Virus record (IMG/VR): IMGVR_UViG_3300043178_000179
Length of the DNA: 64,000 nucleotides
Source of the DNA: a virus
Taxonomy: Duplodnaviria; Heunggongvirae; Uroviricota; Caudoviricetes
Reading direction: 5' to 3' (one strand)
Both the position numbers and the translations under genes were made by a program. This document shows, piece after piece, positions 42,114-50,738 of this stretch. Below the pieces are notes generated by a model. That model worked only from the letters and a program-made list of their open reading frames with translations, did no database searches and was not told the DNA's origin. How positions within the stretch are numbered: position 1 is the stretch's first letter; the number at the start of each line of letters is the position of its first letter.

Positions 42114-42196
42114 GCGCGGATGGCGGAAACGGCAGACGCACCGAGCTCAAGCCTCGGCTCCCACGGGAACTGCGGGTTCGACTCCCGCTCCGCGCA
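42114..42196 (+). tRNA. tRNA-Leu (CAA)
   Basis: Acceptor GCGCGGA/TCCGCGC. Anticodon loop cTCAAgc. Long variable arm. T-loop TTCGACT. Confidence 0.8.
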
Positions 42197-42201
42197 CTCG
42201 T

Positions 42202-42287
42202 CCCGGTGTAGACGTCTATGGAGGACGGGCGGGCTGTAAACCCGTCGCCTTCGGGCCAGGGAGGTTCGATTCCTTCCACCGGGACCA
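42202..42287 (+). tRNA. tRNA-Tyr (GTA), CCA encoded
   Basis: Acceptor CCCGGTG/CACCGGG. Loop ctGTAaa. Long variable arm. Confidence 0.8.
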
Positions 42288-42291
42288 TCTT

Positions 42292-42380
42292 GGAGAGGCC
42301 GTCCTGCGTCGGCGCCAGGTACGCGGTTGGAAACCGCGTGGCCCTCATGGGGTCCGGGGGTTCGACTCCCTTCCTCTCCG
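42292..42380 (+). tRNA. tRNA-Ser (GGA)
   Basis: Acceptor GGAGAGG/CCTCTCC. Loop ttGGAaa. Long variable arm. Confidence 0.75.
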
Positions 42381-42385
42381 CTTGT

Positions 42386-42473
42386 GGCCGGGTGGTGGAA
42401 CTTTGGTAGACACGCCGCGCTCAGGACGCGGTGCTTTCGGGCGCTGAGGGTTCGACTCCCTCCCCGGTCACCA
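42386..42473 (+). tRNA. tRNA-Leu (CAG), CCA encoded
   Basis: Acceptor GGCCGGG/CCCGGTC. Loop ctCAGga. Long variable arm. Confidence 0.8.
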
Positions 42474-42477
42474 TCGT

Positions 42478-42563
42478 GTGCTCGTGGTGGAACATGGTAG
42501 ACACGCCGGGTTGAGGCCCGGTGCCCTCGGGCGGTGAGGGTTCGACTCCCTCCGAGCACACCA
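42478..42563 (+). tRNA. tRNA-Leu (GAG), CCA encoded
   Basis: Acceptor GTGCTCG/CGAGCAC. Loop ttGAGgc. Long variable arm. Confidence 0.8.
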
Positions 42564-42567
42564 TCAC

Positions 42568-42638
42568 AGGGGTCGTACAGGGTACGGGCTGGACTCCAAA
42601 TCCGGCCTTGAAGGGTTCGAGTCCCTTGGCCCCTGCCA
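42568..42638 (+). tRNA. tRNA-Trp (CCA), CCA encoded; compact D-arm
   Basis: Acceptor AGGGGTC/GGCCCCT. Loop ctCCAaa. T-arm aaggg-ttcgagt-ccctt. Confidence 0.65.
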
Positions 42639-42639
42639 C

Positions 42640-42726
42640 GGGAGCGTGGCCGAGAGGAAAGGCACCGGCTTGCTAAGCCGGCGAGGGTCCGGTGGGCCCG
42701 CGCGGGTTCGAGTCCCGCCGCTTCCG
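42640..42726 (+). tRNA. tRNA-Ser (GCT)
   Basis: Acceptor GGGAGCG/CGCTTCC. Loop ttGCTaa. Long variable arm. Confidence 0.75.
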
Positions 42727-42731
42727 CCTCT

Positions 42732-42804
42732 GGACAGGTAGCCCAGTCGGTAGAGCACTCGATTGAAGATCGGGGTGTCGGCGGTTCGATTCCGTCCCTG
42801 TCCA
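42732..42804 (+). tRNA. tRNA-Phe (GAA)
   Basis: Perfect acceptor GGACAGG/CCTGTCC. Loop ttGAAga. Confidence 0.85.
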
Positions 42805-42808
42805 CCTT

Positions 42809-42894
42809 GGAGGGTGTGCGCTCGTCGGCGAAGCGCGCTGGCCCCGAACGTCAGTGGTCCGATGGACCCGAGGGTTCGACTCCCTCACCCTCCG
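42809..42894 (+). tRNA. tRNA-Ser (CGA)
   Basis: Acceptor GGAGGGT/ACCCTCC. Loop ccCGAac. Long variable arm. Confidence 0.75.
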
Positions 42895-42898
42895 CCTT

Positions 42899-42986
42899 GG
42901 AGGACGTGCGCTCGTCGGCGAAGCGCACCGGCCTTGAACACCGGCGGCCCGTCTCGGGCCCGAGGGTTCGACTCCCTCGTCCTCCG
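42899..42986 (+). tRNA. tRNA-Ser (TGA)
   Basis: Acceptor GGAGGAC/GTCCTCC. Loop ctTGAac. Long variable arm. One C-A at the anticodon stem base. Confidence 0.65.
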
Positions 42987-43023
42987 CCTTGCCGCGCGGC
43001 CCATGCCGCGATATGGACCAGCC

Positions 43024-44184
43024 ATGAGCTGGGAGACCGCGAGCCCGGAGTTCCGACAGCAGGTGATCCGTCGGATCGAGCAGTCGGCCCGGAGGACCTA
43101 TCGCCAGCGCCTGCGGGATCCCGCCGCGCAGGACTTCCTCGCGTCGGTCGAGTTCGGTTGTCGGCGCCTCGACGCCGCGTGGGCGCGCGTCGGCTACACC
43201 TGGCCGGGCTGGACCTCCGGCCACGTCGCCCAAGTGAAGGCGATGTCCGAGCCGGTCCTGGGCCTCCCGCCCGGGACGATGGAGTCCAAGGTCGACGACG
43301 ACCTGGTGCTTTGCCAGATCCTCGGTCGGCGGTACGGCGGTCCCCTCTGGGTCCTGGAGGAGGACTGTGCCCGGGCGCTGGCCGCGACCGACCCGCCGAT
43401 CGACCTGATCTCGACGGAGGTGATGGAGTGCCGGCTGCGGCTGCCCTTTCCGTCGATCTGCCTCCAGCTCCCGCCGGTCTTCGAGCTGCACGACGAGCAG
43501 ACCGGCCGCGAGCACCCGGTCGAGGCGATCGAGGTCTGCATGACCTGGGGGCTGAACCTCGACCCCGAGCAGGCGCTCCGTTACCCGAACGCCCTGGCCG
43601 CGCGCCAGGCGCACGAGCCGATGCCGATGCTGCTGATCGTCGCGATCGGCAAGGCCCGAGGGTGTTTCGTCGGGGACGACGGCGTCCCGGTGCTCGACGA
43701 CACGCTCCGCAGCTTCACGCTCGGCGCCGGCCGCCGGGTGAGCGACTTCGGCAAGGTCTCGGGCCTCGACGCGGTCTACGTGGTGCTGAACCTCCTGATG
43801 GCCCTGAACGCGGGCTACCTGGAATCGCGCACGGTGGTCCCTTCCGGGCCGAAGAACCCGGCCAAGGCCGAGAAGCGCGAGCGCCGCGGCGAGGTGCTGG
43901 AGCGCCACACGCTGATCCGGCTCGGCCAGCGGGCGAGGGCGGCGTCCCCGCCGCGGCCCGCCCCGGCATCCGGTGAGCGCGACCCGGTGTCCGCGCACTT
44001 CGTCCGGGGCCACTGGCACTGCTACTGGGTGCGGGAGCCCGGAGACGACCCGGTCCTGTCGCGCAAGCCGGGGAAGAAGGGCGACGGCGAGCTGCACCTC
44101 GTCGCCCGGTGGGTGTTTCCCTTTCAGCGCGGGAGCGGGGGCCCGCCGGAGCCTCGCTATCGGGTCGCCGGATCGAAAAGTTGA
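43024..44184 (+). CDS. hypothetical protein (386 aa) embedded inside the tRNA array
   Basis: ATG start right after tRNA-Ser(TGA). Protein-like composition with no recognisable motif. Confidence 0.5.
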   Translation: MSWETASPEFRQQVIRRIEQSARRTYRQRLRDPAAQDFLASVEFGCRRLDAAWARVGYTWPGWTSGHVAQVKAMSEPVLGLPPGTMESKVDDDLVLCQILGRRYGGPLWVLEEDCARALAATDPPIDLISTEVMECRLRLPFPSICLQLPPVFELHDEQTGREHPVEAIEVCMTWGLNLDPEQALRYPNALAARQAHEPMPMLLIVAIGKARGCFVGDDGVPVLDDTLRSFTLGAGRRVSDFGKVSGLDAVYVVLNLLMALNAGYLESRTVVPSGPKNPAKAEKRERRGEVLERHTLIRLGQRARAASPPRPAPASGERDPVSAHFVRGHWHCYWVREPGDDPVLSRKPGKKGDGELHLVARWVFPFQRGSGGPPEPRYRVAGSKS

Positions 44185-44192
44185 CGACCCGC

Positions 44193-44220
44193 TTGACACC
44201 GCTCCATCGGGTGGTAAGGT
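44193..44220 (+). promoter_or_regulatory. candidate promoter TTGACA-16nt-TAAGGT (a second TTGACG sits 12 nt upstream)
   Basis: Consensus -35 plus TANNNT-like -10, directly before a 38-codon ORF and a strong terminator. Confidence 0.35.
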
Positions 44221-44367
44221 TCGCTCCATGAGAACGCGCTCCAACGAAGCGACCTGTCATCCGGCCCAGGCCGGACGACCGGTCGCGTGCGTGGAGAAGC
44301 GCATCGGTCGGCCGGATACCGACCGGGAGGTCTCCAAGGGATAGTCGCAGCGAGCGAAACCCGACGA

Positions 44368-44405
44368 GGCCCCCGGCACCGAGAGGTCCGGGGGCCTTGT
44401 CGTCT
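44368..44405 (+). terminator. hairpin terminator-like element (9-bp GC stem) immediately before tRNA-Arg
   Basis: ggcccccgg-(11 nt loop)-ccgggggcc followed by ttgtcgtct. Confidence 0.45.
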
Positions 44406-44478
44406 GGGCCCGAAGCTCAAATGGATGAGCGCCGGTCTCCGGAACCGGAGGTTGCGGGTTCGAGTCCCACCGGGCCTA
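44406..44478 (+). tRNA. tRNA-Arg (CCG)
   Basis: Acceptor GGGCCCG/CGGGCCT with G1-U72. Loop ctCCGga. One T-stem mismatch. Confidence 0.7.
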
Positions 44479-44545
44479 CCTTCAATCCTTGAAATCGCGA
44501 AACGAATGGCTGTCGGGCGGGCCGCCTCACGCTGGCCCGCCTCGT

Positions 44546-44621
44546 GTCCCCGAAGCTCAACTGGACGAGCGCCAGGCTACGGACCTGGATGTTGAGGGTT
44601 CGAGTCCCTCCGGGGATACCA
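44546..44621 (+). tRNA. tRNA-Arg (ACG), CCA encoded
   Basis: Acceptor GTCCCCG/CGGGGAT with G1-U72. Loop ctACGga. Confidence 0.8.
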
Positions 44622-44625
44622 TCAT

Positions 44626-44763
44626 GGCGAGGACGCCCTCCGGTTGGGCACAGCTTGAACACAGCTGCCTGCAAAGCAACACGCTGGCCTCCTCGGCCCG
44701 GGCGACCGGGCCCCCACGGCGAAGCGAACACGCTCCAAGTTGGTTCGATTCCAACCCTCGCCA
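44626..44763 (+). ncRNA. tRNA-shaped element (138 nt) with a ~68-nt insertion in the variable-loop position
   Basis: Perfect 7-bp acceptor GGCGAGG/CCTCGCC. D-arm gccc/gggc. Hairpin cagct-tgaacac-agctg. T-arm gttgg-ttcgatt-ccaac. The insert carries the hairpins ggcc-tcctc-ggcc and cccgg-gcgac-ccggg. Confidence 0.4.
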
Positions 44764-44771
44764 CCTCTCTT

Positions 44772-44908
44772 GGGGATGAAGCCTGTTGGTTCAGGCACAG
44801 GTACTCGGCACCTGCTTTCCGCAATCCCGCTGGCCTCCTCGGCCCGGACGACCGGGCCTCCTTCTGGCGAAGCGAACATGCTCAGGGGTTCGACTCCCCG
44901 CATCCCCA
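44772..44908 (+). ncRNA. second tRNA-shaped element (137 nt) with a homologous ~65-nt variable-region insertion
   Basis: Perfect acceptor GGGGATG/CATCCCC. D-arm gcct/aggc. Hairpin caggt-actcggc-acctg. The insert shares 'gctggcctcctcggcccgg.cgaccgggcc...gcgaagcgaaca' with the first element. Confidence 0.4.
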
Positions 44909-44965
44909 CCTTCTCGCCCCCGGCGTCGCTGGAGCCTTCCGGCTCGCGACGGCCGGCGAAACGCT

Positions 44966-45041
44966 GTGGTCGTAGCTCAACGGCTCAGAGCGCCGGGTTG
45001 TGGCCCCGGAGGTGCGGGTTCAACTCCCGCCGATCACCCCA
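44966..45041 (+). tRNA. tRNA-His (GTG), CCA encoded, C73
   Basis: Acceptor GTGGTCG/CGATCAC. Loop ttGTGgc. Discriminator C. Confidence 0.75.
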
Positions 45042-45042
45042 T

Positions 45043-45120
45043 GGTCTCGTGGTGAAGCCTGGAGTTCACGCTGGCCTGTCACGCCAGAGGTCGCGGGTTC
45101 AAATCCCGTCGGGACCGCCA
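45043..45120 (+). tRNA. tRNA-Asp (GTC), CCA encoded
   Basis: Acceptor GGTCTCG/CGGGACC. Loop ctGTCac. Confidence 0.8.
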
Positions 45121-45121
45121 T

Positions 45122-45194
45122 GGATCCATAGCTCAGATGGTAGAGCAGCGGCCTCTTAAGCCGACGGTCCAGGGTTCAAGTCCCTGTGGATCCA
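45122..45194 (+). tRNA. tRNA-Lys (CTT)
   Basis: Acceptor GGATCCA/TGGATCC. Loop ctCTTaa. Confidence 0.75.
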
Positions 45195-45246
45195 CCTTCA
45201 TTCGAGAGGAGGTTCGATGCACCCCAAACGCATCCCTGTGAGCTGC

Positions 45247-45319
45247 GGGCCCGAAGCTCACGGGTGAGCACCGGCCTTTTAAGCCGACAGGCAGGGTTCA
45301 AGTCCCTACGGGCCCACCA
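45247..45319 (+). tRNA. tRNA-Lys (TTT), CCA encoded
   Basis: Acceptor GGGCCCG/CGGGCCC. Loop ctTTTaa. Confidence 0.75.
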
Positions 45320-45393
45320 CCGGGTGTAGCTCAGCCTGGAAGAGCACCAGCCTTGGGCGCTGGACGTCGCAGGTTCAACCCCTGTCACCCGGA
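45320..45393 (+). tRNA. tRNA-Pro (TGG)
   Basis: C1-G72 acceptor CCGGGTG/CACCCGG. Loop ctTGGgc. Confidence 0.8.
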
Positions 45394-45440
45394 CCTGGAG
45401 GACACCATGTTCCGTCGACAACGACGCCTCGATTCGTCGC

Positions 45441-45510
45441 CGGGGCGTCCGCGGGAAGCGGCAGCCGGCCCTTGAAGCCGGTCAACTCGGTTCGATTCCG
45501 AGCGCCCCCG
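45441..45510 (+). tRNA. atypical tRNA-like (TTG anticodon, Gln-like) with C1-C72 mismatch and C33
   Basis: Anticodon hairpin ccggc-ccTTGaa-gccgg. T-arm ctcgg-ttcgatt-ccgag. Compact D-arm. Possibly a pseudogene. Confidence 0.35.
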
Positions 45511-45514
45511 CCTC

Positions 45515-45587
45515 CGCAGCGTAGCTCGGCTGGTAGAGCACCCGGCTCATACCCGGGCGGGCGTGGGTTCGAGTCCCACCGCTGCGA
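45515..45587 (+). tRNA. tRNA-Met (CAT), elongator or Ile2-type
   Basis: Acceptor CGCAGCG/CGCTGCG. Loop ctCATac. Lacks initiator features. Confidence 0.75.
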
Positions 45588-45590
45588 CTT

Positions 45591-45668
45591 CGGGCTGTGG
45601 CGAAGCCTGGTCATCGCGCCGGTCTGGGGGACCGGAGATCGCCGGTTCAAGTCCGGCCAGCCCGACCA
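45591..45668 (+). tRNA. tRNA-Pro (GGG), CCA encoded
   Basis: C1-G72 acceptor CGGGCTG/CAGCCCG. Loop ctGGGgg. Confidence 0.8.
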
Positions 45669-45672
45669 TCGT

Positions 45673-45747
45673 GCTCCCGTCGTCTAGCCCGGTCAGGACG
45701 GCGGCCCCTCAAGCCGCAAACGCAGGGTTCAACTCCCTCCGGGAGCA
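45673..45747 (+). tRNA. tRNA-Glu (CTC)
   Basis: Acceptor GCTCCCG/CGGGAGC. Glu-type 3-bp D-stem (t-cgtc-tag...gac). Loop ccCTCaa with C33. Confidence 0.7.
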
Positions 45748-45758
45748 CTTACCTTCCT

Positions 45759-45831
45759 GGATCCCAAGCTCAAGTGGTCGAGCGCGCGACTGTTAATCGC
45801 GTGGTGCTGGGTTCGAGTCCCAGGGGATCCG
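45759..45831 (+). tRNA. tRNA-Asn (GTT)
   Basis: Perfect acceptor GGATCCC/GGGATCC. Loop ctGTTaa. Confidence 0.85.
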
Positions 45832-45838
45832 CCTCCTT

Positions 45839-45913
45839 CCGGTCGCAGCTCGATGGTGGAGCATCCGCCTGATACGCGGGAGGCTGCTGGTTCAAGTCCA
45901 GCCGACCGGACCA
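45839..45913 (+). tRNA. tRNA-Ile (GAT), CCA encoded
   Basis: Acceptor CCGGTCG/CGACCGG. Loop ctGATac. Confidence 0.8.
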
Positions 45914-45917
45914 TCGC

Positions 45918-45991
45918 TGACCCTTAGCTCAACTGGCAGCAGCGCCCGGCTCTGGACCGGGAGGTTCCAGGTTCGACTCCTGGAGGGTCAA
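45918..45991 (+). tRNA. tRNA-Gln (CTG)
   Basis: U1-A72 acceptor TGACCCT/AGGGTCA. Loop ctCTGga. Confidence 0.75.
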
Positions 45992-45995
45992 CTTC

Positions 45996-46067
45996 GACGA
46001 CGTGGCCGAGAGGTGAGGCAACGGTCTGCAAAGCCGTTCGACGCCGGTTCGACTCCGGCCGTCGTCT
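45996..46067 (+). tRNA. tRNA-Cys (GCA), U73
   Basis: Acceptor GACGACG/CGTCGTC. Loop ctGCAaa. Discriminator U. Confidence 0.8.
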
Positions 46068-46126
46068 CTTGGGGCCGGCCCGTGGCCCCTGGGCGTGCCG
46101 ATGCCCAAGTCCGGTCGCGCTTGGCA

Positions 46127-46218
46127 GCTCTTCGGAGCACCGGGACTGCCGTCCCGGGTTGCGCTTGGCGCGGGCAGCTCTTCGGAGCGCCGGGACTGCC
46201 GTCCCGGGTGGACGACGC
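46127..46218 (+). repeat. tandem ~45-nt repeat, each unit carrying two hairpins (gctc-TTCG-gagc and cccggga-ctgccg-tcccggg)
   Basis: 'gcgcttggc[...]agctcttcggagc(a/g)ccgggactgccgtcccgggt' occurs twice back to back between tRNA-Cys and tRNA-Pro. Confidence 0.6.
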
Positions 46219-46305
46219 GGGAAGCCGCAGCTCGAAGCGACGCTGGCACCGTCGCCGACGGCACCGCAATCGCGGCCAGGGGAGGTAGACGGTAGCCTTC
46301 CCATC

Positions 46306-46379
46306 TCGGGGTGTAGCTCAGCCTGGAAGAGCGGCGGTTTCGGGAGCCGCAGGCCGTGGGTTCGAGTCCCGCCACCCCG
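46306..46379 (+). tRNA. tRNA-Pro (CGG)
   Basis: C1-G72 acceptor CGGGGTG/CACCCCG. Loop ttCGGga. Confidence 0.8.
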
Positions 46380-46813
46380 ACTTCGATCGCTTCCGAGTGC
46401 CCGCCTCGGAATCCGGATTCAGGGCGGCTGGATCGCCGCGGGCTGGTGGAGGGCAACCGCTGCCCCCAGTGCCTTGGGCATCCAGCGCCCTCGGCACACC
46501 CCTCTGGGGATGAAACGGTCTCGACGGGGTACGCAGGCTCGAATCGGCGTCGCAGGCGAGGAGCGGCCTTGACAGCCCACACGGCAAACTGCCAACAACA
46601 ACAACCACTTCGAGGCCCGCGCCGCGGCGTAGGCTTCGAGGTCCAGGGGCTTCGAGCCCCTGGCGTTCGGGGAGGAAGCTGGCCGAGCTTCCCTGGGCGC
46701 ATCCCAGGCCCGGCAGGTCCACTGGTGAACGCGACTCGACCGGTGGATCGGAGTGCATCGAGCGCTGACTGCCCGGGAAAGACGGGCGACACCCGCCGCT
46801 GGGTCACGCGGCA

Positions 46814-46874
46814 GGCGACGTAGCTGGTGACGGTGAGCGTGTTCCGGACGCGGGTTCGACTCCCGCCATCTCCA
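46814..46874 (+). pseudogene. truncated or degenerate tRNA (Gly-TCC-like anticodon hairpin, no variable region, 2 acceptor mismatches)
   Basis: D-arm plus hairpin gcgt-gTTCCgg-acgc, abutting the T-arm gcggg-ttcgact-cccgc. Confidence 0.3.
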
Positions 46875-46878
46875 CTTT

Positions 46879-46952
46879 GCGGCTGAGACCTCGAAGGTGA
46901 GGGCCCGCCTTGCCAGGGCGGGATGGGACGGGTTCGACTCCCGCCAGCCGCT
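46879..46952 (+). tRNA. tRNA-Gly (GCC), U73
   Basis: Acceptor GCGGCTG/CAGCCGC. 6-bp anticodon stem. Loop ttGCCag. Irregular D region. Confidence 0.6.
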
Positions 46953-47022
46953 CCTCGACGTGATCCCTGATCCTCCTTTGTGTCCAGAACCGATCGTGTG
47001 TCCAATCCAGGGGTCGCGTCCT

Positions 47023-47095
47023 GCCCTCGTAGCTCAGCCGGAAGAGCGCCGGTTTCGTAAACCGGAGGTCCGGGGTTCGATGCCCCGCGGGGGCT
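47023..47095 (+). tRNA. tRNA-Thr (CGT)
   Basis: Acceptor GCCCTCG/CGGGGGC. Loop ttCGTaa. Confidence 0.8.
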
Positions 47096-47100
47096 CCTTG

Positions 47101-47172
47101 GCCCGGGTAGCTCAGTGGTGGAGCACCGCCTTGGTAAGGCGGCGGCCATGGGTTCAAGTCCCATCCCGGGCT
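47101..47172 (+). tRNA. tRNA-Thr (GGT)
   Basis: Perfect acceptor GCCCGGG/CCCGGGC. Loop ttGGTaa. Confidence 0.8.
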
Positions 47173-47339
47173 CCTCGTCACCGGCCGGTCTCCGGCCGTC
47201 GCTGACGTTGGGACGAGCGGTGGCCAGTCCCCGCCGGAACCACGCCCGTTCGCGCGGGCGCCGGCGGAAGACCCTGGGCCATCCGAAAGGCTGGCTATAA
47301 ACCGGCTCGACCGGAGCAAACAGGGTTCCACCGCACTTC

Positions 47340-47411
47340 GCGGCCATGGCCGAGAGGTCAGGCACCGCGTTCCCAGCGCGGACGACGCGGGTTCGAGTCC
47401 CGCTGGCCGCT
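47340..47411 (+). tRNA. tRNA-Gly (CCC), U73
   Basis: Acceptor GCGGCCA/TGGCCGC. Loop ttCCCag. Confidence 0.7.
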
Positions 47412-47541
47412 CTTCGAGGAAGCGCAGCGGACGAGGCTTTGGCCCGGCCCGCGACCGTTTCACCGCGGGAGGGCGTTCGCCCGGACCACGGCGCGGTGTT
47501 GGGCCGGGGTGGGTAGCGAGCGGCTGACCAGCTTCCTCTTC

Positions 47542-47614
47542 GCAGGCGAGAGGCCAACGGTGGCCGCCTGGCCTTCCAAGCCGGGACGGACGGGTTCGAT
47601 CCCCGTCGCCTGCT
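47542..47614 (+). tRNA. tRNA-Gly (TCC), U73
   Basis: Acceptor GCAGGCG/CGCCTGC. Loop ctTCCaa. Confidence 0.7.
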
Positions 47615-47618
47615 CCTT

Positions 47619-47691
47619 GCCCGCAGGAGTGCGACTGGCAGCATGCTGGCCTTGTAAGCCGGCCGTCCCGGTTCGAGTCCGGGTGCGGGCT
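47619..47691 (+). tRNA. tRNA-Thr (TGT)
   Basis: Acceptor GCCCGCA/TGCGGGC. Loop ctTGTaa. Irregular D-arm. Confidence 0.65.
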
Positions 47692-47696
47692 TTCGG

Positions 47697-47772
47697 CGGC
47701 GCGTAGCTCAGGTGGGAGAGCACCAGCTCGACAAGCTGGGGGTCGCAGGTTCGAGCCCTGCCGCGCCGACCA
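47697..47772 (+). tRNA. tRNA-Val (GAC), CCA encoded
   Basis: Acceptor CGGCGCG/CGCGCCG. Loop tcGACaa with C33. Confidence 0.7.
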
Positions 47773-47915
47773 TCGACTGCACGGACACTCCTACACAAGT
47801 CCTCCGGATGCCCTGTCCGTGCGCCGCTGCGGGCGGTTTCGTTGGGGCGACAGGGGCTCAGGCTGGCCGGCGGGCCGAAGCACGCGCCTGGTAGAAGGCG
47901 CGTGGCGCCGGCAAC

Positions 47916-47988
47916 GGGGACGTAGCTCAGTTGGGAGAGCGCGGCGTTCGCAACGCCGAGGCCACGGGTTCGACTCCCGTCGTCTCCA
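47916..47988 (+). tRNA. tRNA-Ala (CGC) with the G3-U70 identity pair
   Basis: Acceptor GGGGACG/CGTCTCC. Loop ttCGCaa. Confidence 0.85.
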
Positions 47989-47992
47989 CCTT

Positions 47993-48065
47993 GGGGTCGT
48001 AGCTCACCTGGGAGAGCGCCAGAATGGCATTCTGGAGGTAGAGGGTTCGAGTCCCTTCGACTCCA
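47993..48065 (+). tRNA. tRNA-Ala (GGC) with the G3-U70 identity pair
   Basis: Acceptor GGGGTCG/CGACTCC. Loop atGGCat. Confidence 0.85.
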
Positions 48066-48067
48066 CT

Positions 48068-49336
48068 TCACCTCGGGCAGGCGAGCCCGGTGCTGGGCGC
48101 GTCCCAGCGCTCGTACTCCTTGGCGAGCACGTCCTCGATCCCGGCTCTCGGGTTCTCGGCTCGCCAGGCGGCGACCTGTTCGCGGATCGGGACGAAGCCG
48201 TAGGCGACGTTCTTGTCCTCGAACACGGTGATCGGTCGGCCCTCGCGCTTCCACCGGGCCACGACGGGGTTCCAGGTCCCGGTCCTCCGGAGCTTGGCGA
48301 CGCGCTTCTCGGGGAAGAGCGCCATCTGCGCGCCCCGCAGCGCGACGGCCTCGGCCTCCCACCGTTCGACCTCGCGGAAGAAGGCCGGCTCGATGACCGA
48401 CAGCGCCCAGTACCAGGACACGTCTTGGTACTTGCACATCATGCAGCCGGACTTCTGGACCCCGGAGAAGCCGCCGGCCGCGAGGATGCTCGGCTCGTCG
48501 AAGTGGGTGAGCCCGATCTGCCGCGCGGCCTTCTTCCGGGCCGCGGCGATCCGGTCTCGGTCGACCTTGGGGAGGCCGTCCAGGTCCTCGCGCTTGGTGA
48601 CCCCCATCTCGACGAGCGGGTAGGCGTCGCCCTCCCAGGCGAAGCGGCCCTTCTGGCTCGGCTCCAGCCGCAGCGCGCGCCGGGCCTCGTCGGCCGCGAT
48701 GCCGAGCAGCACGAGGTGGGACCGCCGGCGTCCCGCGAGCACGAACCGGTTCCACTCGGCGGTTCCGACGCCGAACCGTTCTCGACTCAGGTCGTCCATG
48801 AGTTCGCGGCCTGGCTCGACCTTGTGGTTCATGGTGCAGTCGGCCGGCTTCTTGAGGATGATCATGCGCCGGCTGGCGTAGTCGTCGAGGATCGGCGGTC
48901 GCCGGTGGTAGTAGCCCCGCGCGGCGCGGGCCTCGATGCTCTTCGGCGGGTCGCGCCGCCAGGGCGGGGTCAGCACGGGCAGGCGTTGCCCGGGCCGGGC
49001 CTCGCGCATCCGGCCGAGCTCGCGCAGCCAGGCGATCCACCCGTCGGGGCCCTTGGCCGGGGGCTTGCGCTGGACGATGAACCGCAGTCCGTGCCGGCTG
49101 GTGAGCTTCTCGATCCTCGGGATCAGGTCGTAGGTCGCGGGCCACTCGGCGCCGGGATCGGTGAACACGACGGCGTCCACGTCGCCCGGCCGGATGGTCT
49201 CGCCGTCCGCGATCAGTCCGGGCCCGACGAGCAGCAGCAGCATGGTGATGCTGTCGCGGCCCAGGCCGAGTCGGAGCACGACGAGGCGGTCCTTCTTCGC
49301 GCCCTTCGCGGCGTCGAGCAGCGCGTCGAGGTCCAT
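48068..49336 (-). CDS. PAPS reductase-like PP-loop family protein (third, divergent paralog) carrying the N-terminal DLDALL motif; lies inside the tRNA array
   Basis: 'MDLDALLDAAKGAKKDR' then 'LVVLRLGLGRDSITMLLLL' (degenerate PP-loop). 'GCMMCKY'. Confidence 0.5.
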   Translation of the reverse strand: MDLDALLDAAKGAKKDRLVVLRLGLGRDSITMLLLLVGPGLIADGETIRPGDVDAVVFTDPGAEWPATYDLIPRIEKLTSRHGLRFIVQRKPPAKGPDGWIAWLRELGRMREARPGQRLPVLTPPWRRDPPKSIEARAARGYYHRRPPILDDYASRRMIILKKPADCTMNHKVEPGRELMDDLSRERFGVGTAEWNRFVLAGRRRSHLVLLGIAADEARRALRLEPSQKGRFAWEGDAYPLVEMGVTKREDLDGLPKVDRDRIAAARKKAARQIGLTHFDEPSILAAGGFSGVQKSGCMMCKYQDVSWYWALSVIEPAFFREVERWEAEAVALRGAQMALFPEKRVAKLRRTGTWNPVVARWKREGRPITVFEDKNVAYGFVPIREQVAAWRAENPRAGIEDVLAKEYERWDAPSTGLACPR

Positions 49337-49394
49337 GGCCTCAAGCGTAGCCCGGCTTGACCTCCGCCGGCCACGGAACTACGTCGCGGTCGTG

Positions 49395-49607
49395 AGCGAG
49401 CCTCCGACCCCCGAGCGCATCGTGGCCGCGATCGAGTCCTGGCAGGCGGACCCTTACGTCCACCCGCTGACTTGCGGCTGGGACTCGCAGAACCACCGGC
49501 CGCTGCGGCCCCGCCGCGACGGGGACCAGGTGGTGCTGGTCTGCGAGGACTGCGACTACGTCCAGCGCTGGGTTCCGGCCGTGGTGCTGGGCCGCACGGG
49601 AGCGTAG
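49395..49607 (+). CDS. small Cys-containing protein
   Basis: GTG start. 'LTCGWDS...LVCEDCDYV'. The 3' end overlaps tRNA-Ala by 10 nt. Weak call. Confidence 0.25.
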   Translation, partial: SEPPTPERIVAAIESWQADPYVHPLTCGWDSQNHRPLRPRRDGDQVVLVCEDCDYVQRWVPAVVLGRTGA

Positions 49608-49670
49608 CTCAGTTGGGAGAGCATCGGCTTTGCAAGCCGGGGGTCGCGGGTTCGAGTCCCGCCGCTTCCA
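49598..49670 (+). tRNA. tRNA-Ala (TGC) with the G3-U70 identity pair
   Basis: Acceptor GGGAGCG/CGCTTCC. Loop ttTGCaa. Confidence 0.85.
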
Positions 49671-49677
49671 CCTTTCG

Positions 49678-49761
49678 AGCAGGGGTGCAGCATCGGTTCC
49701 GCTGGGAGGGCTCATAACCCTCCGGCTTCGGCCCAACCGGGTTCGACTCCCGGCCCTGCGT
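49678..49761 (+). tRNA. atypical class-II-like tRNA: CAU anticodon plus a 14-nt variable arm, A1-G72 mismatch
   Basis: D-stem cagc/gctg. Anticodon hairpin gaggg-ctCATaa-ccctc. Variable hairpin cggc-ttcg-gccc. T-arm ccggg-ttcgact-cccgg. Confidence 0.4.
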
Positions 49762-49769
49762 CCTTCTTT

Positions 49770-49841
49770 GCCCGCGTAGCCGACTGGGAAGGCGGCGGTC
49801 CTACAAACCGCTTCATGCAGGTTCGATTCCTGTCGCGGGTA
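49770..49841 (+). tRNA. tRNA-Val (TAC)
   Basis: Acceptor GCCCGCG/CGCGGGT. Loop ccTACaa. Confidence 0.8.
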
Positions 49842-49848
49842 CTTCGTC

Positions 49849-49923
49849 GCTGCCGAAGACGAAGCGGTCCAGTCACTGGTCTTTCAAGCCCGTCATTAGC
49901 GGGTTCGAGTCCCGCCGGCAGCA
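49849..49923 (+). tRNA. tRNA-Glu (TTC)
   Basis: Perfect acceptor GCTGCCG/CGGCAGC. 3-bp D-stem. Loop ctTTCaa. One U-C mismatch in the anticodon stem. Confidence 0.6.
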
Positions 49924-49930
49924 CCTTCAC

Positions 49931-50003
49931 GCGCCCGTAGCTCAGCTGGAAGAGCACCGACCTTCTACGTCGAGAGTCGTGGGTTCGATTCCCTCCGGGC
50001 GTA
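49931..50003 (+). tRNA. tRNA-Arg (TCT)
   Basis: Acceptor GCGCCCG/CGGGCGT. Loop ctTCTac. Confidence 0.7.
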
Positions 50004-50004
50004 C

Positions 50005-50078
50005 GTCCCCGAAGCTCAATGGAGGAGCGCCGGTTTCCTAAACCGGGCCAGTTGCGGGTTCGAGTCCCGCCGGGGACA
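50005..50078 (+). tRNA. tRNA-Arg (CCT)
   Basis: Perfect acceptor GTCCCCG/CGGGGAC. Loop ttCCTaa. Confidence 0.75.
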
Positions 50079-50123
50079 CCTTTCGTCCTGTCCGACAGCC
50101 ACGTTTGCGATTATGGATCGGTC

Positions 50124-50738
50124 ATGGAGACCACCGTACTGGTCCTGGACGCGGCGTACCAGCCGCTCAAGGTCGTCCCCTGGCAGAGGGCGATCGAGCT
50201 GATCGTCTCGCAGAAGGCGAACCTCGTCCAGGAGTACGCCGGCCGCGTCGTGCGGTCCGCGAAGCTGACCCTGCCGCTCCCGGCGGTGGTCGTGCTCCGC
50301 CGGTACGTCCGGCTCCGCAACCGGGTGAAGTTCAACCGCCGGAACGTGCTCGCGCGCGACGCGCACCGCTGCGGCTACTGCGGGACCCGTCCGCTCCGTC
50401 GCGACGGAAAGGTGGACCTGGCCGAGCTGACGATCGACCACGTCGTCCCCCGGGCGCAGGCTCGGGACGGCCGGGTACGGCTGCCCGGGGGCCGCGAGGT
50501 CCCGGTGACCTGCTGGGAGAACGTGGCGACGGCGTGCATCCCCTGCAACATGAAGAAGGCGGACCGTCGGCCCGACCAGGTCGGGATGACGCTCCGCCTG
50601 ACGCCCCGGAAGCCGAACGAGCTGGACATCCTGCGCATGGCGCTTTCCCGGGTGCAGGTCCCCGAGGAGTGGAAGGACTACCTGCCCAAGGACTCCTCCT
50701 GGGTGGACTACTGGGACGTCCAGCTCGACGCAGACTGA
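50124..50738 (+). CDS. HNH endonuclease
   Basis: 'RDAHRCGYCG...LTIDHVVPRAQ...WENVATACIPCNMKKADR' (CxxC...H-N-H...CxxC). Confidence 0.7.
   Translation: METTVLVLDAAYQPLKVVPWQRAIELIVSQKANLVQEYAGRVVRSAKLTLPLPAVVVLRRYVRLRNRVKFNRRNVLARDAHRCGYCGTRPLRRDGKVDLAELTIDHVVPRAQARDGRVRLPGGREVPVTCWENVATACIPCNMKKADRRPDQVGMTLRLTPRKPNELDILRMALSRVQVPEEWKDYLPKDSSWVDYWDVQLDAD

Follow-up and report, generated by a model that had tools for sequence, protein, structure and literature searches.

Bacterial initiator tRNAs are set apart from elongators by a handful of positions, of which a mismatch at 1:72 is a defining one (PMC11231383, PMC9976931). An unpaired 1:72, together with three consecutive G:C pairs within the anticodon stem, keeps the tRNA from EF-Tu and the ribosomal A site and favours the P site (PMC11231383), while G2:C71, C3:G70, G4:C69 and A73 have been listed as minor determinants of formylation (PMC9976931). 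Long variable arms, for their part, are limited in reviews to tRNA-Leu, tRNA-Ser and tRNA-Tyr, plus the selenocysteine tRNA, tRNA-Sec (PMC7609411). Here we report on a tRNA gene at 49678-49761 on the + strand of a 64,000-nt stretch of DNA from a virus of the Caudoviricetes (IMG/VR record IMGVR_UViG_3300043178_000179; the whole stretch is called the window below). We consider it probable that this gene, hereafter the target, encodes the phage's own initiator tRNA, of the formylmethionine type (tRNA-fMet), on a class-II-like scaffold with an extra hairpin arm.

Two kinds of described tRNA come close to this design. Allo-tRNAs and the (8/4) tRNAs of phages share with the target a non-canonical build and long variable arms, and stem in part from tRNA clusters of uncultured phages (PMC5389517). 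However, their branches are 8/4 or 9/3 and their identity is Ser (or His), and initiator tRNAs are not mentioned in their description (Mukai et al., PMC5389517). The target has initiator marks and a 7/5 branch, that is, a 7-bp acceptor stem (with the 1:72 mismatch) and a 5-bp T stem, and was rejected as an allo-tRNA on that count. The tRNA-Met of Streptomyces phage GiJojo (PP725410, 6126-6206) is likewise a phage tRNA of the initiator type and, like the target, is expanded somewhere from its anticodon stem to its T loop. In GiJojo about 7 unpaired nt have been added to the T stem's 5' strand (AGGTCGTCTCAAACGG), whereas in the target the expansion is a hairpin in the variable arm. Initiator tRNAs that carry a long variable arm were not found described in the full-text literature and in reviews on non-canonical tRNAs, tRNA identity and tRNA engineering, a body of text that does not cover all journals and leaves a prior mention possible. 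Long-arm phage initiator tRNAs have thus apparently been undescribed so far.

A tRNA gene with initiator marks and a hairpin arm

ARAGORN places a tRNA(cat) at 49678-49763; its 86 nt include an encoded CC. The parts of the gene are as follows.

49678..49761 (+): initiator-type tRNA gene, position 1 through discriminator U73; anticodon CAU, long variable region (ARAGORN; RNAfold; model R1, described below; sequence)
49678..49684 (+): 5' strand of the acceptor stem, AGCAGGG; A1 unpaired with G72, then G2:C71 and C3:G70 (sequence)
49685..49687 (+): 3-nt connector GTG between acceptor and D stem, the canonical U8 and N9 plus one nucleotide (sequence)
49688..49704 (+): D arm, stem CAGC/GCTG (C10:G25, A11:U24, G12:C23, C13:G22) and 9-nt loop ATCGGTTCC with G18 G19 (RNAfold, sequence)
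49705 (+): G26, between D stem and anticodon stem (sequence)
49706..49722 (+): anticodon arm GAGGG-CTCATAA-CCCTC, loop at 49711-49717 and anticodon CAT at 49713-49715 (RNAfold, sequence)
49723..49736 (+): 14-nt variable region CGGCTTCGGCCCAA, made of 1 unpaired nt (C), a hairpin and 3 unpaired nt (CAA) (RNAfold)
49724..49733 (+): variable-arm hairpin, 3-bp stem GGC/GCC with a C(UUCG)G tetraloop (RNAfold)
49737..49753 (+): T arm CCGGG-TTCGACT-CCCGG (RNAfold, sequence)
49754..49763 (+): 3' strand of the acceptor stem CCCTGCG, followed by discriminator T (49761) and by CC (49762-49763), with no encoded final A (sequence)

This cloverleaf is both the minimum-free-energy and the centroid structure of RNAfold. 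It agrees with the first-pass annotation, as ARAGORN does, on a CAU-anticodon tRNA with a long, hairpin-forming variable arm at 49678-49761, and RNAfold returns the D stem (cagc/gctg) and the anticodon hairpin (gaggg-ctCATaa-ccctc) that had been drawn there. The 14-nt variable region and its hairpin likewise stand; the 4-bp stem proposed for the hairpin does not, being reduced to the three pairs GGC/GCC under the UUCG loop, with the outer c/c unpaired. Two covariance-model alignments, to Rfam tRNA-Sec and to R1, place the same CAU anticodon and no different one. The anticodon loop is closed by three consecutive G:C pairs (29-31:39-41), and G49705 could pair with C49723, which gives a possible sixth pair to the anticodon stem.

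When set against bacterial tRNA-fMet, the target has in common the CAU anticodon in a CUCAUAA loop, G29-31:C39-41, an unpaired 1:72 (here A1xG72), G2:C71, C3:G70, A11:U24 and the 7/5 branch. Such marks are published determinants of formylation, A-site exclusion and P-site binding (PMC11231383; PMC9976931). The target differs from tRNA-fMet in its 14-nt hairpin-forming variable region, where tRNA-fMet has a 5-nt loop of the AGGUC type, and in its 3-nt connector, where tRNA-fMet has 2 nt. It also has U73 instead of A73, AxG at 1:72 where tRNA-fMet usually has CxA, and an A:U pair at 4:69.

Generic models deal poorly with the gene: it falls below the threshold of the Rfam tRNA model, and clan competition leaves only tRNA-Sec (RF01852), whose 27.3 bits stay below the gathering score of 47. 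That tRNA-Sec is the best Rfam clan match is owed to the long arm and the possible 6-bp anticodon stem. A tRNA-Sec assignment was rejected, given this score, a CAU rather than UCA anticodon, a 7/5 rather than 8/5 branch and a D stem of 4 rather than 6 bp. Folds with an 8-bp acceptor stem, or of tRNA-Sec or allo-tRNA type, were also discarded, as the register does not pair.

In the target (49761-49766), and equally in the neighbouring tRNA-Ala gene (49670-49673), the discriminator plus CC is encoded and the next letter is T, not A, so that the terminal A would need to be added after transcription. The full CCA is encoded in some other genes of the array, for example those at 42386-42473 and 42478-42563.

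Two CAU tRNAs in one array

The target lies within a large tRNA array, and gaps of only 5-6 nt separate it from its neighbours. Two features of the array bear on its identity.

42114..50080 (+): main block of the array of 43 tRNA genes plus tmRNA, holding the target (ARAGORN, Rfam)
45515..45588 (+): the window's other CAU tRNA, elongator-type, with C1:G72 paired, C11:G24, C29:G41, loop CUCAUAC and a 5-nt variable loop (sequence, model comparison)

The 43 tRNA genes and the tmRNA called by ARAGORN are all on the + strand of the window, and the array covers all 20 amino acids. The CAU anticodon is common to initiators, elongator tRNA-Met and the tRNA-Ile2 that reads AUA via lysidine, and ARAGORN labels the target Met. 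One could accordingly read it as an elongator for AUG or AUA whose long arm is incidental, and arrays of this sort do hold several CAU species, as three adjacent CAU tRNAs in a 735-kb phage show (see below). However, an unpaired 1:72 combined with three G:C pairs excludes a tRNA from EF-Tu and the A site (PMC11231383), and a separate elongator-type tRNA-Met with a paired C1:G72 is present at 45515. The initiator-type anticodon arm GGGCTCATAACCC occurs once only in the 64-kb window, and that is in the target. Thus, the elongator marks of the gene at 45515 and the initiator marks of the target indicate that the two CAU genes fill the elongator and the initiator slot. AUA accounts for 0 of 9,559 codons in 35 open reading frames (ORFs) of the window, which were picked for high G+C at third codon positions, a choice biased against AUA; this argues against a demand for a lysidine tRNA-Ile2. 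We therefore think it unlikely that the target serves as an elongator or as tRNA-Ile2.

A widespread set of long-arm initiator-type tRNAs

The target belongs to a widespread set of phage initiator-type tRNAs that share one design and are concentrated in tRNA arrays. In this design the anticodon arm is that of an initiator, and after it come a short hairpin with a tetraloop cap and some 3 unpaired nt on the 3' side. IMG/VR was scanned with the pattern GGGCTCATAACCC-N15-30-GGTTCRANTCC, which asks for the initiator anticodon arm followed by the T loop 15-30 nt later (the canonical spacing is 10 nt). The pattern matches 93 loci, with 70 distinct tRNA sequences called by ARAGORN. The related set analysed here joins the viral matches to those in species genomes and holds 101 distinct sequences with a well-paired acceptor stem.

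The initiator marks recur throughout this set. With a single exception, the 101 sequences have a mismatched or weakly paired 1:72 (UU 31, CU 15, UA 14, AU 10, CA 10, and others); 2:71 is G:C in 95/101 and 3:70 is C:G in 93/101. The discriminator is A in 80/101 and U in 16/101, so that U73 is not unique to the target. A11:U24 is found in 38 of 51 aligned long-arm members, compared with 43 of 55 canonical initiator-type tRNAs. A connector of at least 3 nt, as in the target, is present in 23 of the 51 long-arm initiators, whereas all 55 canonical ones have 2 nt.

The variable region of these tRNAs measures 11-25 nt and forms a hairpin in 63/78, with a GNRA loop in 30 and a C-G closing pair in 37/54. 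Its commonest architecture is that of the target: 1 nt, a 3-bp stem, a 4-nt loop and 3 nt. In 16 sequences this region is 14 nt long; here each of the 3 stem pairs varies on both sides, and pairing holds in 91.7% of cells. None of 500 shuffles reaches the whole-structure covariation measures, and slid registers collapse. The closest structural relatives of the target are high-GC members with a 3-nt connector (L010, L019, L034, L109, L111, L121, L130), none of which is a close sequence relative.

Long-arm loci tend to lie among other tRNA genes. At least 3 tRNAs within 2.5 kb are found in 67 of the 93 loci (median 6), as against 44 of 120 among the canonical-spacing matches listed, of which 68 are solitary. 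The 80 listed contigs include 28 of at least 100 kb, of which 14 reach at least 200 kb. A canonical initiator-type gene is also present in the fetched flank of only 4/93 loci, leaving 89/93 without one nearby. No recurrent partner protein, such as a formyltransferase or a nuclease, was found beside the long-arm tRNAs, only ORFs resembling homing endonucleases of the HNH and GIY-YIG types (L010, L034, L068, L093, L101, L121, L130).

In 185,579 species genomes the same pattern gives only 38 loci. Thirteen of these have N runs, or sequence duplicated where an assembly was joined. About 6 others are truncated genes or direct duplications, 7 are initiators of archaea that carry inserts, and about 12 are of the hairpin type. 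Most of the hairpin-type loci lie in tRNA arrays on contigs of metagenome-assembled genomes (MAGs), with 18, 17, 13, 11, 8 and 7 tRNAs; outside such array-bearing MAG contigs the long-arm design is nearly absent from the species genomes. Two Bacteroidota MAG contigs (L117, L118) carry otherwise host-like initiators with a palindrome, TCCGCC..GGCGGA, in the variable region and no tRNA array around them, and may represent a cellular case or an inserted repeat. The archaeal initiator genes (A1:U72; L096, L100, L102, L103, L105, L106, L125) have 19-25 nt between the anticodon and T stems. These inserts are putative non-canonical introns, and the archaeal genes are unrelated to the phage set.

One member of the set lies in a published genome, that of the 735-kb uncultured phage LR756501, where a 91-nt long-arm gene stands beside a canonical-type initiator and a third CAU tRNA in an unannotated record. 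The three CAU tRNAs follow one another (L291, 1494-1837) and are succeeded by a tRNA-Ile(UAU). First comes the long-arm initiator-type gene, whose T loop, CCGAATC, is odd; next comes an initiator-type gene with a canonical arm; and the third has C1xA72 and lacks the three G:C pairs. When five family representatives were compared with INPHARED, LR756501 was the sole long-arm case. The other matches were GiJojo, a normal-length tRNA-Met of Pseudomonas phage D3 (75 bp in the record) and an Inovirus record in which the match is an unrelated 35 nt. Streptomyces phage Peebs has two tRNA-Met genes, both normal in length.

Model scores and the case for an initiator

To compare the tRNAs of the window we used two covariance models: R1, from 51 long-arm members with the target left out, and R2, from canonical initiators. 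Against R1 the target tops the window with 63.7 bits (E ~3e-13), and the class II Leu and Tyr tRNAs reach 47-52 bits. With such a score to a model built without it, and with its tight spacing in a 43-tRNA array, the target gene is no chance match. The difference between the R2 score and that of the generic Rfam tRNA model is at least +10 bits for the target (37.4 versus at most 27.3), +6.6 for the tRNA at 45515 and negative for three other tRNAs compared. Identity of the target to canonical initiator-type tRNAs of other viral contigs reaches 0.77, and in one such tRNA (L147) the acceptor stem and U73 are identical to its own.

Several observations weigh against an initiator identity. The R1 margin of the target over the elongator-type tRNA at 45515 is just 3.5 bits, compared with at least 11 bits over the class II tRNAs. 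Under R2 the target scores 37.4 bits and ranks 28, with the elongator-type tRNA at 45515 first at 73 bits; we attribute this outcome to insertion penalties, which dominate the R2 scores, and to the low information content of R2, which says little on isotype. The target has U73 instead of A73 and A4:U69 instead of G4:C69, and the purine-purine AxG at 1:72 is rare, being found in 1/101 sequences of the long-arm set (the target itself) and 2/102 of the canonical set. The assignment of A11:U24 hangs on the reading of a 3-nt connector, which makes CAGC/GCTG positions 10-13/22-25 and the pair in question A49689:T49703. Expression, charging and formylation of the target are predictions from its sequence. 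The role that we propose below for the arm is a tentative one, and no recurrent partner protein other than homing endonucleases stands beside such genes.

A final point on this side is that no close relative of the target gene was found in IMG/VR, the metagenome collection, GTDB genomes or INPHARED, and none of the phage in INPHARED or IMG/VR. A megablast search of 1.6 kb against INPHARED gave no match, blastn of the target tRNA alone gave merely a 20-nt match in the T arm, and the neighbouring 422-aa protein had no match in IMG/VR. Of two target-specific patterns run on the metagenomes, the first had 0 matches and the second 37, none of them an ortholog of the target. Most of these 37 belong to another tRNA-like sequence, a repeated one that has CTCATAAG and whose insert is longer.

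Unlikely readings: class II descent or decay

The long, hairpin-forming variable region invites the reading that the target is a class II tRNA, with a Leu, Ser or Tyr body, whose anticodon has switched and which inserts a wrong amino acid at AUG; the first-pass annotation had favoured a body of the Leu/Ser type. A helical variable arm is indeed shared with class II tRNAs, and its layout (3 bp, UUCG loop, 3 unpaired nt) resembles that of the window's tRNA-Tyr and tRNA-Leu(cag). Of all tRNAs in the window, tRNA-Ser(tga) and tRNA-Ser(cga) are the most similar to the target, with identities of 0.70 and 0.69. However, with the variable region removed, identity is 0.59-0.70 to class II and 0.58-0.68 to class I tRNAs; since the class II values fall within the range of all window tRNAs (0.58-0.70), there is no kinship above background and no parent can be recognised. 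Nor is the arm of the Ser type, as the window's four tRNA-Ser genes have variable stems of 4-5 bp and 1 unpaired nt, where the target has 3 bp and 3 nt.

The identity elements also speak against a class II body. TyrRS requires A73 and G34/U35, and CAU, which is cognate to none of Leu, Tyr and Ser, is the main determinant for E. coli MetRS. A73 is crucial for E. coli LeuRS (PMC9976931), and a long arm with G73 has been reported as recognition elements of SerRS (PMC7609411); the discriminator of the target is U73, neither the A73 of Leu and Tyr nor the G73 of Ser. Moreover, the 1:72 mismatch, A11:U24 and the three G:C pairs would need a joint origin by chance on a Leu or Ser body. The same combination is present in more than 60 unrelated phage sequences. 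We hold a switched class II tRNA to be very improbable. Of the decoding behaviours that had been suggested along with it, the initiator-like one is retained, given the initiator hallmarks, and missense decoding is not.

Decay was the other suggestion made from the sequence, and several features would suit a non-functional pseudogene left in the array: the score below the threshold of the generic Rfam tRNA model, a weak fold z-score (-1.47), AxG at 1:72, the extra connector nucleotide, unusual D-loop positions and U73. Yet every helix is perfectly paired save for the 1:72 mismatch that is expected of an initiator, the T loop TTCGACT and G18 G19 of the D loop are intact, and the spacing to the neighbours is as tight as in the rest of the array. 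The 1:72 mismatch, which had been named as a possible sign of decay, is a feature of bacterial initiators and the rule in the related set; it recurs, like the long arm, the extra connector nucleotide and U73, in many independent phage lineages, in which the variable stem covaries. A pseudogene is thus an improbable explanation, and an initiator tRNA remains the reading that we prefer.

Other expanded initiator-type tRNAs in phages

Long variable arms are one of at least three kinds of expansion seen in initiator-type genes of phages. In a second kind, an unpaired insertion of about 7 nt, AGGTCGTCTCAAACGGTTCGAATCCTAC, bulges from the T stem. It is found in GiJojo (L252, 3000-3080), an isolate in which the gene is annotated as a plain tRNA-Met, and also in L017, L038, L044, L048, L057, L060, L070 and L073. 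A third kind combines a hairpin of the GGC-GTAA-GCC type in the D loop with a variable region of 20-22 nt (L029, L050, L082, L088).

That initiator-type genes of phages have been expanded in at least three ways would fit a tRNA-like RNA outside translation. Such an RNA could be regulatory, or could serve as decoy or sponge where the initiator tRNA is the target of a host toxin or nuclease. The long-arm copy beside a canonical copy in the 735-kb phage likewise hints at divided roles. However, the long-arm gene is the sole initiator-type gene seen in 89/93 loci and in the window, which fits a working initiator better, and all elements needed for charging and formylation are kept. We give a non-translational role little credence, and continue with the target as a probable working initiator.

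The remainder of the window

G+C content is 71% throughout the window. Its phage-type genes encode an endolysin-like protein with peptidoglycan-binding and SLT domains, a DNA methyltransferase, two proteins resembling PAPS reductase, an SPFH protein, and an HNH endonuclease (ORF at 50019-50738, +, directly 3' of the array). The SPFH protein shares only about 32% identity with proteins from phages that are unrelated. Most ORFs of the window have no Pfam or PHROG match. The phage-encoded tmRNA lies inside the array at 46506-46875 (+), has the tag peptide ANNNNHFEARAAA and scores 63 bits in Rfam.

Two tRNA genes lie outside the main block, at 33246-33321 and 34276-34351, both on the + strand. The first has a Leu anticodon, CAA, on a class I scaffold with a 5-nt variable loop, the reverse of the anomaly in the target; its G+C content is 55% in a genome of 71%, and it has C at position 37. 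Genes of 75-76 nt for tRNA-Leu(tag) are likewise annotated in Streptomyces phage Peebs (L290). The second, about 1 kb from another odd tRNA, reaches 55.6 bits with the Rfam tRNA model; its anticodon, UUA, would decode the stop codon UAA, which makes it a possible ochre suppressor. Within the array, a class II tRNA at 42478-42563 (+) has an anticodon loop of only 6 nt (UUGAGG), for which ARAGORN gives '???' and the anticodon 'ga'; a Leu(GAG)-like gene whose loop has been shortened is the probable identity.

Proposed working and meaning of the arm

If the target works as an initiator, it would be transcribed with the array and excised by RNase P and 3' processing enzymes, and its 3' end, of which only N73-CC is encoded, would be completed by the host's CCA-adding enzyme. 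Host MetRS would charge it with methionine via the CAU anticodon, and Met-tRNA formyltransferase would act via the unpaired 1:72, G2:C71, C3:G70 and A11:U24. IF2 would then deliver it to the P site of the 30S subunit, where the three G:C pairs would be read. Throughout, the hairpin would project from the elbow of the tRNA, on a side used by none of MetRS, formyltransferase, IF2 and the P site. Long arms have been reported to need repositioning past the A-site finger during A-to-P translocation (PMC11231383). As an initiator enters the P site directly and skips this step, it may tolerate a long arm unusually well.

The arm is short, its ultra-stable tetraloops vary in sequence and its stem covaries, which argues for selection on shape and not on sequence. 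With low confidence, we favour the idea that it acts as a sequence-independent steric tag that is tolerated by methionine charging, formylation and P-site binding. Such a tag might set the phage initiator apart from that of the host, and so spare it, for instance, from a factor of the host, or a shut-off factor of the phage, whose substrate is the host initiator.

To conclude, the long arm on an initiator-type tRNA is not a one-off: unrelated tRNA arrays of phages, dozens in number and some of them from very large phages, share it. If these genes are working initiators, annotation pipelines that rely on generic tRNA models may miss or mislabel them; the Rfam tRNA model falls below its threshold on the target. 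MetRS, formyltransferase, IF2 and the P site would then all tolerate a class II arm, which would be useful for the engineering of orthogonal initiators, and the arm itself would be a candidate marker that separates phage from host initiation. It is possible, although we put this forward only tentatively, that expanded initiators which can be told physically from the host's have evolved time and again in phages, above all in large phages that carry tRNA arrays. These would form a private or immune channel of initiation, out of reach of any host defence, or any shut-off factor of the phage, that is directed at the host initiator.

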